From the NCBI GenBank assembly GCA_964016885.1, contig OZ024744.1:55676001-55740000 (forward strand): a DNA stretch of 64,000 nt, read 5' to 3'. Below the pieces are notes generated by a model, which worked only from the letters and a program-made list of their open reading frames with translations, was not told the origin of the DNA and did not search any database. This document shows positions 16,919 to 58,393 of the stretch, piece after piece. How positions within the stretch are numbered: position 1 is the stretch's first letter; every line of letters begins with the position of its first letter. The position numbers were made by a program, and so were the translations under genes. This DNA is from Eledone cirrhosa. Its lineage: Eukaryota.

Positions 16919-17234
16919 AAGAGATTTTATTAGTCCAAATTAAAAGTTTAAGCAAAGAATTTCTGCTTTTATCCTAAGTGGGATTTTCTGAAACACACCC
17001 ACACACATACACACACAAATACCCCCCACGCACACATACACACACAAACACATGCATTTTTATTGCAAGGTTCTCCGATAACCTTAATAATTACTTTTAT
17101 TTGATGTATACATAATTTCTTAATATATGACCAAAATTTGAGTAATTATTATCATTTGGAATATAAATGTTGGACTATCCAATTACTTATGACTCAATCT
17201 GTGTATATATTAATGTTTGATAAATTTATTTATA

Positions 17235-17763
17235 CTAGGTTGAGGAAAAAGTTTGTGAGCTGTGTTAAAATAATGATTTTTTATGCAAGAATTTATTCAA
17301 AAGCAACAACAACTATTCTTCAAAATAAAGACCATCATTGCCCACGACCTTCTGCCAACGACCTGCAGGCTTTCGGATTTGGGCAAGGTACCAATCCTTC
17401 GGCTTTCAATCGAAAAATTCTTGACAAGCTTCTTCAACTTCATTGAATGACTCAAATCGGCGACCTTTCATAGGGTGCTGCAATGATCGGAAGAGACCGT
17501 AGTCAGATGGAGCAACGTCTGGACTCTAGGCTGGATGCAACAGAACTTCCACACTGTCCAATTCTTCAATCTTGTTGCTGGTCTTTCTGGCGGTATGTGG
17601 CTTTGCATTGTCTTGTTGAAACAAAGCGCGTTTTCGATGAACAAGACTTCAGTACTTTTCAACCAGCGCATCGTAGACTCGATCAAGTTGCTCGCAGTAA
17701 AGTTCAGCGTTGATGGCGCGACCATTATTTTAACACGGTGCACAAACTTTTTCCTCAACCTAA
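17235..17763 (-). mobile_element. Internally deleted mariner with both TIRs and TA target duplication
   Basis: TIR CTAGGTTGAGGAAAAAGTTTGTG / CACAAACTTTTTCCTCAACCTAA; internal SPDVAPSDY motif on minus strand. Confidence 0.88.
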
Positions 17764-17887
17764 TATATATGTCAATCGATCTTTTAATTTTATAATAAAT
17801 GTTTGGATTTATTCTTTGAGTTTCTTCTGCAGGTGGTATGATGCATGTTTGAGATTTTCTCAGACATGACATCTATATTTTTTATAG

Positions 17888-17942
<55 letters not shown>

Positions 17943-17959
17943 TACTTGGGGAGGGTCAT

Positions 17960-19352
17960 ATTGTTGTAATAATATTGCCAGAAATAATAACAGAACATAC
18001 TCACTGTTTGGTTGGTTTTCGCTTCTGTATCTTTTATATCTCCACAGTTAATTCATTTGGTCCTCAATGTTTATTATTGACTGACCAACGGTAAAAAATA
18101 CAGATATAAATACATATTTATAGTCTAACAAAGTTCTTTCGTTGCACATCTGCAAAATCATCAGTGGTACTATTATGATCCTCCTGTTGTATTGTATGTC
18201 TACGCCATTTTTATTTTATCTGTTTATTTATTTATTTATTTTGGTCTTCTCTGTGCATGCATTTGCGCGTGTGTATAGTGTTTGGTGTGTGTGTTCGCGT
18301 TTGGGTGACTGTGTTTTGGTTATTGTATTCTATCTTAGTTTACTAGTGTGTGTTTATATGCGTTTGTTGTTATTGTGCTTGTGTATATATATATTTATTT
18401 ATTTATTTATTTATATTTCTCTTAAGTCAGTGTTGTTTGTTTGGGTGTTGTTGTTATTCCATTCATTTTTTCTGTTTAGCTTTGGCTTTCTATTTTGCTT
18501 GCCTCTATTTTGCTTGCCTCTCTGATTTGCCTATCTGCTGGCTCATTTCTATGTTTAGATATTATTTTAATTTCTATGTTGTCTATGTTACCGTCATGTT
18601 GTTGTCTGGTGTGTTTGTATAGTACTGAACCATTTTTTCGTCCTTTTAATTTCCCCTGTGTTGGTCCATCCTTTCATCTATGTTACGAGCTGTCTCACCT
18701 ATGTATGTTGTTGTCATGTTTCTGCAAGTGTACATCTTATGCTATAGACTACATTTCTAGTTTTACAGTTTATCTGGGGATTTACTTTACATATAACACA
18801 TTTCCTATTAATACAGTGGGTTTTCTTAAAATGGTATGTTTTGCTGATCAGGGATTTTATGGTAGTTCCTGACTTTTCTACCACTTTAATCTTTAAGTGG
18901 GTCTTTCTCAGGGCCTTTCTACATTAGTTAGCTAATTTCTCTCCAGGGGTAGCGTCCATGAACATGACACTCTGGTATCTCTGGTTGTCGTACCATGAGG
19001 TGGCTTTCCCTATCTTATGTTTGGTCCTATCTAAGCTATTCCATGCTTTGCTCCTGTATAATGGGCAAATTCCTTTCATGTCCAGTTCTATGAGGGTCTT
19101 ATACTTCTCCGTGGCTCCTTTGTATACTCTGATTCTGTCTCTTTGGTTGTAGCCAGAGAACTGCATGCGGTTGATGAAGTGTTGGATGTGTCTTTCCATT
19201 TCTGTTGGGTTGCACATGCGGGACACGTTCTTCATCACTCGTACCAAGTCTGCGATCAGAATATTAAACTTAGCACTACTGGACATTGCTGAGTTTTTGA
19301 GTATCAGGTATTTGGAGGCCATGGGTTTAGTGTAGTGTGAGTGGGCTATAAT
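17960..19352 (-). mobile_element. Penelope-like element 3' part (RT thumb, frameshifted GIY-YIG, simple-repeat-rich 3' region)
   Basis: HYTKPMAS...NSAMS...SGY; downstream CKTRNVVYSIRC / YIGETAR. Confidence 0.8.
18120..18173 (-). ncRNA. Degenerate hammerhead ribozyme in Penelope 3' region
   Basis: CUGAUGA-UUUUGCA GAUG UGCAAC-GAAA; stem I imperfect. Confidence 0.5.
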
Positions 19353-19399
19353 CAATATCGGGAAAAATGAAAGTGCCCATGACCATCCGGAGTACATAA

Positions 19400-19832
19400 G
19401 TAAACTATGTCTTAAATACAACGCTTGTAGTTTTCTAACGCTCTTGCAGTAGCTTTACGTTCAGCATCTTGCGATCATCCAATTGCAGCCTCCATTGATG
19501 ATTCATTTGCTTTTCTTCTTTTCCCTCTCTCAGCTTTCGCCGTTTCTCAACCAATGGCGGATCTCTTCCTTGGAGGCATTATCTAAGGAAAGAGGACATT
19601 ACACACTAAGATAAGTAAAATGTTAACCAACAATTATTTAAGTTTCGTGACTGTCACGGTGATCCAGAGACAGCCTTCGTCTACCTTAGATAAAAACTTG
19701 AACATTTTATGAGTCCACAACATTTCTAGGAACATAACGCATGTTTGTTCCAAAGCTGAAGAAAATCAGTTGCTAACTGTAGAAGTTATGTAGGTACGGA
19801 CATACACACATCCTCAGTTTTATATATGTAGA
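19400..19832 (-). mobile_element. Helitron 5' fragment
   Basis: TCTACATATATAAAACTGAGGATGTG 5' end; MPPRKRSAIG... start resembles the RepHel start at 56990. Confidence 0.65.
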
Positions 19833-19932
19833 TATATAAGTGTTGAAGTTTCCGTGGAAAAAGTAAAAGGAATGAAGAGTGCTCTATGTAAGTAACAGAG
19901 CTAAATATTTAATGTATAATAAACAACACAGT

Positions 19933-20097
19933 ATAATTACCTCATTACTCGAGGTTTCCCGAACAGGATGAACACAAGAGATGTCCACATTCGTTCATCA
20001 GATAAGGCAATATCTGATATTGCTTTATCTGACAAATGAATGCGGACGTCTCTTGTGTTCGTCCTGTTCGGGAAACCTTGAGTAATGAGGTAATTAT
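19933..20097. ncRNA. Fold-back palindrome with two hammerhead motifs (minus 19937-20010 intact core; plus 20020-20093 with CUGACAA)
   Basis: Minus: UUGCCUUAU CUGAUGA ACGAA...UUCGG GAAA CCUCGAG UA^AUGAGGUAA; 9-bp stem I. Confidence 0.7.
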
Positions 20098-20099
20098 TT

Positions 20100-57548: not shown

Positions 57549-57769
57549 AAAATAACAGATTAAAGTTTAAGCAAAGAATTGCTGCTTTCACCCTTAACAG
57601 GATCTCTTGAAACTAAAAAAATCAATCTGTGAACGCAGAAGTAAATATTTCGAAAAACTTGCTACCGAAGGAAAACAGGAAGACGATACTTTGGTTTGTG
57701 AAGACGTGGCACCTCTACGACCACTTTGCAGTGGAATGATAGGGACCCCAGTCCTATTATCTCATTTCT

Positions 57770-57897
57770 ACAGGTGAGTAAACTGGAGCAATGTGAAATA
57801 AAGTGTCTTGTTCAAGGAAACAACACATCACTGGTCTGAGAATTGAACTCACAACCCTTCGATTGCAAGCCCAATGCTTTAACCACTAAGTATGCAC
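57770..57897 (-). mobile_element. tRNA-derived SINE 5' part
   Basis: Minus strand CTTAGTGGTTAAAGC...GAGTTCAATTC...TGTGTTGTTTCCTTGAACAAGACACTT. Confidence 0.75.
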
Positions 57898-57898
57898 A

Positions 57899-57972
<74 letters not shown>

Positions 57973-58002
57973 AGTGGTTACACAACAGTTAGTTCACCTT
58001 AC

Positions 58003-58040
58003 TGAGAACAATTGTTTCACCTTCGCGGATCTTCAGCTCG
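58003..58040 (-). ncRNA. Minimal hammerhead inside fold-back 57972-58098
   Basis: CGAG CUGAAGA UCC GCGAA GGU GAAA CAAUUG UU^CUCA; the opposite arm gives CUCG, restoring stem I. Confidence 0.65.
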
Positions 58041-58164
58041 TGAAACAATCCAGAAGGTGAAACAATTGTTCTCGGTACAACTGTTGTGTAACCACTTCTA
58101 CCTAACTCGTCCCTTGGACTGAGTGCTCTACCACTACGGATATTACCTTCCAGTGTTCCACCAC

Positions 58165-58198
<34 letters not shown>

Positions 58199-58350
58199 TA
58201 TATACATATATATATATATATATGTACGTATGGGTTATATCGAATATTAATAATAATGTTCGATTTGTTTGTAACCAGATGGCTCGATTTGAAGCTGTGC
58301 CATGCCGGTAAACCGATCGTCACCTGTTTGTTCAACACTGGCTTTAAGGA

Positions 58351-58393
58351 ACAATCAACATGTTTCTGGGTCATTACCCTTCATCAGGACTGT
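58351..58393 (-). ncRNA. Canonical Penelope-type minimal hammerhead ribozyme
   Basis: ACAGUC CUGAUGA AGGGU AAUG ACCCA GAAA CAUG UU^GAUUGU; palindromic ACAUGU stem III. Confidence 0.8.

Follow-up and report, generated by a model that had tools for sequence, protein, structure and literature searches.

Ribozyme-bearing insertions in TA repeats of an octopus genome carry a tail hairpin resembling that of Hydra-clade Penelope-like elements

A 64,000-nt stretch of the Eledone cirrhosa genome (hereafter, the window) contains a group of small insertions without coding sequence, almost all of them located in TA repeats, which appear to share a tail hairpin with the Hydra clade of Penelope-like elements (PLEs). 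The group comprises six units listed in a first-pass annotation of this DNA and five unlisted fold-backs (Table 1). From their sequences, we judge it likely, with a probability of roughly 60%, that these units are copied by a Hydra reverse transcriptase (RT)/GIY-YIG enzyme predicted to use the hairpin for the RT start. The broad picture of Penelope hammerhead mini-elements is already published (Cervera 2014; Craig 2021; Li 2026), and without the tail result our finding would be an expected case of published biology.

About a dozen type-I hammerheads had been listed, a number that stands in part. A strict type-I descriptor gives seven matches in the window, compared to a mean of 0.055 (maximum 1) in 200 local dinucleotide shuffles, an excess over shuffled sequence within these 64 kb. 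The seven (C3 at −20001, −48287, −48617, +48752, −49107, −58036 and −58387) are all among the 12 listed motifs. Two others, +20029 (CTGACAA) and +43094 (CCGATGA), satisfy the descriptor with one core change each. Three are decayed: the 39244 motif has an intact core, a stem II of 83 nt and its first two stem-I pairs broken, stem III is broken at 41863, and the stems at 18120 are weak. The full type-I complement (CUGANGA, GAAA, NUH, three helices) is present in the strict set and incomplete in 20029, 43094, 39244, 41863, 18120 and a three-copy CAGAAGA repeat. On its own, the CTGANGA box shows no enrichment (36 in the window versus 32.8 in shuffles), and a descriptor made more stringent at the base of stem II recovers only four motifs. 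Cores at 20730, 39551, 23106, 27503 and 60879 failed the stem tests and were ruled out as hammerheads. Rfam gives no hits at the gathering score. At E ≤ 10 in region 47900–49250, no hammerhead family was found among 42 Rfam matches, and among the matches listed, those on the fold-backs are to miRNA models only.

The stems were said to differ in sequence while keeping their pairing, and this is borne out. When each family is represented by a single unit, 58 of 64 stem cells are paired, versus a shuffled mean of 28.7 (0 of 5000 shuffles as high); with the two weakest units included, the values are 71 of 80 and 32.9. One caveat here is that units in this count were picked as hammerhead-like, and hence the pairing score partly reflects selection. 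Independent support for covariation comes from 9,630 reads of run X10, in which the 48561 family retains the core and stems I and III, while stem II is wholly different yet self-pairing. By motif and pairing, the window hammerheads are genuine, and their self-cleavage is predicted. Stem III self-duplexes have predicted energies of −2 to −9 kcal/mol. A palindromic stem III had been described as allowing dimeric cleavage; within a fold-back, this part fails, because the paired hammerheads lie on opposite strands and a catalytic dimer is impossible.

Table 1. Hammerhead-related features of the window, named in parentheses by the motif position used in the text
Feature	Position	Strand	Details
Hammerhead-like repeat, ~80 bp, without U4, copy 1 of 3	16915..16999	−	
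3′ terminal repeat of PLE remnant (18120)	17939..18200	−	decayed hammerhead C3 18164; AATAAA; donor-like GTGAGT; ends at (TA)24
PLE coding remnant	18717..19349	−	not Hydra-type; RT thumb and linker, translated across stop codons; 62% to P0011
Fold-back (19937)	19838..20097	−	hammerhead C3 20001, cleavage after 19946; tail hairpin 19901–19876; inverted copy with broken core (C3 20029, +)
Hammerhead-like repeat without U4, best copy	29750..29826	−	core CAGAAGA; 4-bp stem III; adjoins TA
Unlisted older fold-back	30170..30560	.	decayed hammerhead 3′ half; decayed tail hairpin ~30489
Unlisted 34-bp fold-back and tail	32818..32928	−	hairpin from 32886
Unlisted fold-back	38889..39062	+	tail hairpin 38989–39018; hammerhead lost
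Single unit (39244)	39110..39390	−	decayed hammerhead C3 39351, 83-nt stem II; looser tail hairpin from 39198
Decayed hammerhead (41863)	41845..41960	−	C3 41925; stem II long and stem III broken; lacks TA tract and tail
Isolated minimal hammerhead	43084..43140	+	core CCGATGA; 10-bp stem I; lacks TA tract and tail
Fold-back (48242)	48113..48505	−	hammerhead C3 48287, cleavage after 48249; tail hairpin from 48187; inverted + copy ~48418 without GAAA and stem III
Fold-back (48561)	48516..48932	.	two intact hammerheads, C3 48617 (−) and C3 48752 (+); long arm +; tail hairpin from 48845
Fold-back (49055)	48953..49439	−	hammerhead C3 49107, cleavage after 49062; tail hairpin 49013–48988; inverted short arm 49380–49435, 56 bp, 100% identical, begins at stem II end
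Unlisted fold-back	49478..49694	−	looser tail hairpin from 49545; possible hammerhead 3′ half
Unlisted fold-back	50369..50600	+	tail hairpin from 50520; family shared with 32818–32928
Neptune-like PLE remnant	50767..53083	−	ORF part 52745–51948 (Cys linker, GIY-YIG PF01541)
Hammerhead-like repeat without U4, third copy	57535..57615	−	core CAAGAGA
Fold-back (58003)	57973..58164	.	hammerhead C3 58036 (−, 3-bp stem I); long + arm begins within stem II; tail hairpin from 58105
Hammerhead between TA tracts (58351)	58223..58505	−	C3 58387; 6-nt palindromic stem III; not folded back; strict tail hairpin absent

The annotation described one diverse family of microsatellite-associated units, and this description survives in outline: the units are Penelope-type, inserted at TA, mostly non-coding, arranged in an inverted layout known for PLEs and, from reads, abundant genome-wide. 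With unit ends placed by eye and the TA tract in view, 8 of the 10 listed units, including all six with a tail hairpin, have an end ≤2 nt from (TA)3+; the exceptions to the claimed TA association are 41863 and 43084. Half (5 of 10) are fold-backs, in keeping with the remark that many are folded back, and whole fold-backs reach 487 bp, exceeding the suggested limit of ~350 bp. The single family does not hold together. Six units form a Hydra-type superfamily with the tail hairpin, 18120 belongs to a coding remnant, as its terminal-repeat hammerhead, and is not a mini-element, and 58351, 43084 and 41863 have no strict hairpin match. Upstream, the 49055 family extends over 100 nt or more of U-rich sequence that resembles the 3′ UTR of a full element.

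The tail hairpin, RCTC-N-GAGY-(RCT), is present in the six listed units and the five unlisted fold-backs, with eight strict and three looser matches. The order of features is: hammerhead, 33–62 nt counted from the cleavage site, hairpin (RCT being added in strict matches), ~40–65 nt, and (TA)n. All ten fold-backs have unequal outer ends, with an inverted 5′-truncated copy and the tail on one end, as in Hydra terminal repeats; both 3′ ends point outward and the hairpin lies inside the long arm only. In 8 of 10, the short arm terminates −1 to 6 nt ahead of the hairpin, and the long arm runs 64–94 nt beyond. The exceptions are 19937 (31 nt) and 50370 (15 nt, with a local duplication there). Arm lengths range from 17 to >300 bp, and every arm that reaches the ribozyme spans the scissile bond. 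Every one of the eight strict matches falls in a zone that reaches 35 nt outward from a fold-back arm end and covers 1.3% of positions, a post hoc result in that the motif was drawn by eye from the same units. The motif is short, and its strict count is not enriched in the window (8 versus 5.4 in shuffles, maximum 13). The basal pair is A-U in seven cases and G-C in four; three of the five pairs are invariant, and the fifth is formed in only 6 of 11. For the 48242 tail at least, minimum free energy folding gives a different structure.

The same short end is seen independently of the window fold-backs, in sequencing reads and at one metagenomic locus. Fifty-five contigs of run X1 exit into (TA)n at 48842, 2–3 nt ahead of the hairpin, contigs of X5 do so at 48842 and 48196, and read depth drops 5–6-fold across the 48242 tail. 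A metagenome search with the tail pattern returned 39 loci, none with both a hammerhead and a Hydra ORF. Thirty-eight were judged chance matches (among them L019 and the tandem repeat L014), and the one retained, L032, is a fold-back with half of a Hydra-type hammerhead whose short arm ends 4 nt ahead of the hairpin. The 48561 family is represented by very many copies in the reads, which is as far as we interpret summed contig depth (never as copy number), and a high-copy family is present in two other organisms as well. Runs X7–X9, with shares under 0.1, were left out of this evidence, and X10 is a RAD DNA library whose read-end pile-ups are uninformative on cleavage.

Several features point to the Hydra clade. 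Hydra hammerheads have a 3–4-bp stem III, loops of 1–3 nt and often a U.U at the base of stem II, and 26 of 27 Hydra families listed have (TA)n as target (File S2). By-eye comparison with this file gives a Hydra-type hammerhead shape for 19937, 39244, 48242, 48561, 49055 and 58003. The U.U recurs in the 58036 hammerhead, and stem III at 49107 (ACCA-C-TGGT) compares with ACCA-A-TGGT in Hydra-1_Obim of Octopus bimaculoides. Read by eye, three of six published Hydra consensus sequences contain the strict hairpin, 38 nt past the cut in Hydra-2_Ajap, 43 nt past it in Hydra-2_Amil and at the very start of Hydra-1_Ajap, and Hydra-1_Crog has a near match 47 nt past the cut. Three Hydra consensus sequences terminate 36–47 nt past the cut, which corresponds to the short end. 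Both sea-cucumber elements have a 6+13-nt pattern that we find at two places in the window, in the tails of two hammerheads, and in none of 100 shuffles. The full hairpin is absent from the published octopus Hydra consensus: Hydra-1_Obim agrees with the window units only in stem III and end position, and the hairpin match is to the sea-cucumber and coral elements.

Hydra PLEs as reported by Craig et al. (2021, PMC8557442) are like the window units in hammerhead shape (a near-palindromic stem III of 3–4 bp, and a mismatch or additional base where stem II begins), in having (TA)n as target, in their inverted 5′-truncated copies and one-sided tail and, in consensus sequences, in a tail hairpin. 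The terms ‘hairpin’ and ‘stem-loop’ have no occurrences in the main text of that paper, and the non-autonomous elements described in the sections cited here are Chlamys. In contrast to Hydra PLEs, the window units have apparently far higher copy number, tails of 64–94 nt (published PLE tails are 30–40 bp) and no ORF, whereas an autonomous Hydra element has one with RT, a C-terminal GIY-YIG domain, an N-terminal RWK and a CxCX5C linker. None of the 11 tail-bearing units reaches an ORF, and Hydra-ORF-specific motifs are absent from the six frames of the window, save two isolated, chance-like matches to each of two short patterns.

In the mechanism that we propose, a Hydra RT-endonuclease would recognise the tail hairpin, nick both strands of a (TA)n tract and prime two cDNAs, one beginning just 5′ of the hairpin and the other at the far end of the tail. 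Both would be templated by RNA that is uncut or re-ligated, would proceed toward its 5′ end with frequent stalls in stem II, and would then be joined head to head, giving a fold-back. In source copies, the hammerhead would be kept by selection, probably for processing of precursor RNA as a dimer; fold-back copies, if read through, would yield ribozyme-silent double-stranded RNA. A comparable arrangement is known from the Anolis PLE Poseidon PAc (Frangieh et al. 2024, PMC11167929), in which both strands are extended on uncut RNA template at AT-rich targets, and two RT start sites downstream of the hammerhead bound a tail in a stem-loop. Unlike the window units, PAc belongs to another clade, is autonomous, and has a shorter tail and an AC-rich stem-loop within its ORF.

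A Hydra partner might instead use the hairpin as DNA, the cDNA folding back to copy itself and an endonuclease (EN) nick just before the hairpin creating the short end. Craig et al. attribute the tail to EN-mediated resolution (PMC8557442), Frangieh et al. cite earlier work in which the D. virilis tail is required for EN recognition (PMC11167929), and self-priming suits the near-zero spacers at centres 19937 and 32895 and the identical arms 49022/49435. We regard this as unlikely, given that the only in vitro PLE system places tail ends at RT start sites (PMC11167929) and that some records join a 5′ end at 48692 to an inverted tail-only fragment (48868), an arrangement better suited to two separate primings.

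That 5′ end also bears on whether the units are simply 3′ ends, truncated on the 5′ side, of numerous autonomous Hydra families, in which case there would be no non-autonomous lineage. PLE insertions are strongly 5′-truncated and often inverted, arms here vary widely in length, the region upstream of 49055 is 3′ UTR-like, and two X6 contigs continue 134 nt beyond 48351. However, several records of the 48561 family exit at 48692 with the same 6–7 letters and then diverge (~8 contigs and 14 reads among thousands, counting the records listed), family depth is very high compared to the four co-terminal copies annotated for the Hydra-1_Obim consensus, and, as noted, no tail-bearing unit extends into coding sequence. 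We doubt that truncation accounts for the units as a whole; they are likely non-autonomous, which we hold with fair assurance for most families, and some may be truncated ends of full Hydra elements. A Pol III origin of the 48561 family was thought unlikely on account of an internal T6 run.

Dispersed single PLE hammerheads and opposite-strand pairs 100–700 bp apart, with extreme sequence variability, covariation and a palindromic loop 3, have been described (Cervera & de la Peña 2014, PMC4209133). Unlike the window units, they were read as truncated PLEs, with no clade or tail analysis, and mostly have a minimal stem III; octopus is not named in the portions of that paper cited here. Animal non-LTR retrozymes (Cervera & de la Peña 2020, PMC7229834; Li, Clavereau & Pollet 2026, 10.64898/2026.07.22.740005) are likewise short non-coding type-I hammerhead units, proposed as non-autonomous PLE derivatives, with monomers common; molluscs were not sampled by Li et al., and coral was the only source of Hydra in their data. 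It is improbable, in our view, that the window units are monomeric offspring of tandem retrozymes replicating via circular RNA, even though their length (~250 nt), low GC content, type-I hammerheads and arms copied through the scissile bond are all consistent with this, retrozyme families can be mostly monomers, and such an origin is compatible with a Hydra mover. Retrozymes are defined by tandem repeats giving circular RNA (a hammerhead in at least two consecutive units), whereas the window contains no tandem array, its units being solo or folded back. Furthermore, no unit-length go-back joint appears among the 15 of 37 joints listed, and a shared 5′ exit upstream of the ribozyme is unexpected for a circle.

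The annotation also reported two Penelope coding remnants in the window, both of which we confirm, and hinted at them as movers of the units, which they probably are not. RYLDD or RYVDD is the RT motif in relatives of both remnants, as opposed to YRDDG/A in Hydra proteins, and the tail motif is missing from both. These RT motifs rule out the 18717–19349 remnant as Hydra; its relative P0013 has C-x2-C...H...H, and the tail of its terminal repeat recurs in a fold-back at 47075–47537. The other remnant has a 344-bp inverted arm (99.4% identical) and a ~35-bp tail without the hairpin motif. Its ORF part has a CDRPNCGIC linker, PF01541 and invariant Cys/His columns (alignment A3), as expected of the Neptune/Nematis type (a CX2-5CxxC linker ahead of a C-terminal GIY-YIG with CCHH), and a metagenome query with P0004 gave no confirmed Neptune-like loci. 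Both remnants end in (TA)n, both families form the same inverted structure and the Neptune-like copy is young, yet we give very little credence to movement of the units by either of these PLE families (except perhaps for 58351, 43084 and 18120), since the remnant tails have neither the strict hairpin nor similarity to the mini-units, whose hammerhead shape and tail fit Hydra.

Copying by a Hydra enzyme from a tail signal would bear on questions stated as open, namely the origin of PLE tails and inverted ends and the role of the hammerheads (PMC8557442, PMC11167929), for which the units form a compact natural data set. The hairpin is a candidate cis-signal at one of the two insertion ends, common to three phyla and testable by mutation with one purified enzyme and a 100-nt RNA. 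The reading also singles out a particular clade as partner of non-autonomous hammerhead repeats, whose link to PLEs in publications is only a general one. More tentatively, Hydra PLEs might fix the RT start by one hairpin, RCTC-N-GAGY-RCT, with conservation across coral, sea cucumber and octopus. In octopus, a SINE-like superfamily of ~250-nt ribozyme passengers, in tens of thousands of copies, would keep the signal while freely exchanging ribozyme stems. If so, any RNA carrying the tail would be written into (TA)n. These data suggest a large class of ribozyme repeats and perfect double-stranded hairpins in octopus genomes that is not yet annotated. Read-through fold-back RNA is predicted to form a perfect hairpin of −72 to −217 kcal/mol, compared to −7 to −20 for the ribozyme stretch alone.

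A strict type-I hammerhead descriptor gave seven matches in the window, compared to 0.055 in 200 local shuffles. All seven fall among the 12 motifs listed in the first-pass annotation, indicating that the listed hammerheads are real. Relaxing the criteria in a scored scan brought in +20029 and +43094 (a single core change each) and –29820, with eight matches scoring ≥25 versus 0.075 in 40 shuffles. In the motifs at 39244, 41863 and 18120, both boxes persist while the stems are broken; the three breaks in 39244, one of them in stem III and the others in stem I, are compatible with CpG decay. 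None of the window's units was recognized by the Rfam models. The stems were said to differ in sequence yet keep pairing, and this holds: when each family is represented by a single unit, pairing is seen in 58 of 64 stem cells versus 28.7 in shuffled sequence, a count partly built in by the selection of units. An independent case of covariation comes from the X10 read set, in which 9,630 reads carry the core and stems I and III of the 48561 family but a different, self-pairing stem II. Of the structural associations proposed, adjacency to (TA)n is seen in 8/10 units and fails in two, and folding back is seen in half (5/10).

The ribozyme stems of the units at 19937 and 49055 are unrelated, yet their tails are nearly identical (27/28 letters in the alignment). 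The common tail element, lying between hammerhead and (TA)n, is an RCTC-N-GAGY hairpin with RCT after it. Its basal pair is A-U in seven sequences but G-C in four; three other pairs show no variation, and the fifth is weak. Strict matches are no more numerous in the window than expected by chance (8 versus 5.4 shuffled). All eight lie ≤35 nt beyond the end of a fold-back arm, a zone comprising 1.3% of positions, with none elsewhere, although this position test is post hoc. In every fold-back, the 3' ends face outward and the outer ends are unequal. The short arm stops short of the hairpin by –1 to 6 nt in 8/10 cases (by 15 and 31 nt in the exceptions), and the long arm runs 64–94 nt further, to (TA)n, in 9/10.

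Contig ends, depth and metagenome loci provide tests outside the motif definition. Fifty-five contigs of the X1 set exit into (TA)n at 48842, and contigs of a second set, X5, do so at 48842 and 48196. Depth is 5- to 6-fold lower in the tail of 48242, and 37 contigs exit at 49027, 13 nt short of the hairpin of the 49055 unit. Among 39 metagenome loci with the tail pattern, L032 alone is a fold-back with a Hydra-type hammerhead half; its centre lies in stem II of that half, and 4 nt separate the end of its short arm from the hairpin. The remaining 38 loci look like chance matches and were rejected.

What the analysis adds is the assignment of the units to the Hydra clade of Penelope-like elements (PLEs), together with a conserved tail hairpin marking one insertion end. 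In the available part of the Craig et al. 2021 supplement (PMC8557442), Hydra hammerheads have a 3–4-bp stem III and tiny loops, as in the window units, and 26/27 Hydra families target (TA)n. By eye, 3/6 Hydra consensus sequences there contain the strict hairpin: Hydra-1_Ajap opens with it at the 5' end, and in Hydra-2_Ajap and Hydra-2_Amil it follows the cut by 38 and 43 nt, respectively. One further consensus has a near match, and three stop 36–47 nt after the cut. Based on these positions and ends, a complete Hydra unit appears to start with the hairpin and end just before one, the tail being, it seems, the beginning of the next unit. A pattern present in both sea-cucumber elements of this material, GCTCTG...CATAGAGCACTCT, recurs in the tails of the 19937 and 49055 units; it is found twice in the window and never in 100 shuffles. 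The octopus consensus, Hydra-1_Obim, as given there, has only a stem III match and a short end in common with the window units.

The two PLE coding remnants reported in the window are both real. They are probably not the partners of the units, since neither is Hydra: where Hydra has YRDDG/A, the corresponding motif of their relatives is RYLDD or RYVDD. The Neptune-like remnant has a tail of ~35 bp lacking the hairpin motif, and the other has its own hammerhead at 18164. For one of the two, the sole named relative is an Octopus vulgaris protein (66%). The thumb motifs QFSGY and PLYR of the 18717–19349 family (protein relatives P0011–P0020) had no match in the Craig 2021 supplement, where long sequences are shown partly; this family possibly belongs to an undescribed clade.

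Wherever a fold-back arm extends into the ribozyme, it runs across the scissile bond; several of the inverted arms end in or at stem II (49380, 58047, L032). Within a fold-back, one hammerhead is in sense and the other in antisense orientation, which excludes a catalytic dimer of the two; a read-through transcript is predicted to form a perfect duplex. In the accessible portions of a study of an Anolis element (Frangieh 2024, PMC11167929), two RT starts bound the tail, both strands are extended, uncut RNA is preferred and cleavage is protein-assisted. By analogy, a Hydra RT-EN would bind the tail hairpin, nick (TA)n and prime two cDNAs, which would be joined head to head. Alternatively, the hairpin could act at the DNA level, as a site of resolution by the endonuclease; this is the main rival explanation.

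None of the 11 tail-bearing units reaches an ORF, and a 5' exit at 48692 is shared by ~7 X1 contigs, 14 X10 reads and one contig of the X6 set, as counted among the records listed, a minority and a small part of the data. Together, these observations support non-autonomy. The 49055 family continues further upstream. Genome-wide statements rest on reads and contigs compared with 48114–49260 at 80% likeness, which matched 9,822 X1 contigs and 29,457 X10 reads, and 25 and 78 records in two other organisms (X5, X6). Summed X1 depth across the ribozymes is 3x10^5 to 1.6x10^6, with 7–13 for each contig listed; this sum is not a copy number and is read only as very many copies.

The broad reading in the first-pass annotation, of dispersed Penelope-type ribozyme units, is already published. 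The available text of Cervera & de la Pena 2014 (PMC4209133) describes solo PLE hammerheads by the thousand, as well as pairs on opposite strands 100–700 bp apart, covariation and a palindromic loop 3. Tandem retrozymes are treated as PLE passengers in the accessible parts of Cervera 2020 (PMC7229834) and Li et al. 2026 (10.64898/2026.07.22.740005), and the Hydra clade, octopus family included, is covered in those of Craig 2021 (PMC8557442). The units are, for the most part, what Penelope biology would be expected to produce. No paper on octopus hammerhead repeats, on non-autonomous Hydra derivatives or on a conserved Hydra tail hairpin was among the literature searched; Repbase, Dfam and subscription papers may hold such families.

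The window consists of animal DNA that is rich in AT and microsatellites and crowded with transposon debris, as tabulated.

Features of the window and of metagenome contig L032
Position	Strand	Feature
4150–8561		73-bp satellite, 60 copies, 94% matches; unit largely self-complementary, in inverted blocks
8762–9439, 26634–28668, 44114–45139		Non-LTR reverse transcriptase remnants (PF00078 at 8762–9439 and 27727–28668) and transposase-like ORF (no Pfam match)
16915–16999, 29750–29826, 57535–57615	–	80-bp hammerhead-like repeat
17228–17770		540-bp element, 48-bp terminal inverted repeats, flanking TA; resembles Tc1/mariner-type miniature element
18717–19349	–	PLE coding remnant
20640–20800	–	CTGATGA...GAAA core, stems unconvincing; AATAAA follows; may be a decayed terminal repeat
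30489		Decayed tail hairpin
31709–31786, 35061–35158		Short microsatellite-centred palindromes without hammerhead or tail hairpin
37255–38320		48-bp unit x 22 in tandem, similar to end of the window's common dispersed SINE-like repeat
39198, 49545		Looser tail hairpins
39490–39600	–	CTGATGA...GAAA core, stems unconvincing
43490–44004	+	Decayed tandem, ~150-nt units; 3' end sequence common to 50369 fold-back family; last unit has hammerhead-like CTGATGTGA...GAAA order, terminates at (TA)n
47075–47537		Fold-back akin to tail of 18120 terminal repeat; hammerhead gone
50767–53083		Neptune-like PLE coding remnant
53197–56786	–	Helitron remnant (PF14214 at 55139–55879), directly adjoining Neptune-like insertion
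L032:1773–1920	+	Eukaryote-like contig; fold-back, Hydra-type hammerhead half, tail hairpin
L032:1226–1414		Second palindrome

All three copies of the 80-bp repeat lack the conserved U4 (CAGAAGA, CAGAAAA, CAAGAGA) and, despite this loss, have good stems, with a 4-bp stem III. This repeat may have a variant core, or it may descend from a dead master copy that spread nonetheless. Similarity among the copies begins exactly at stem I.
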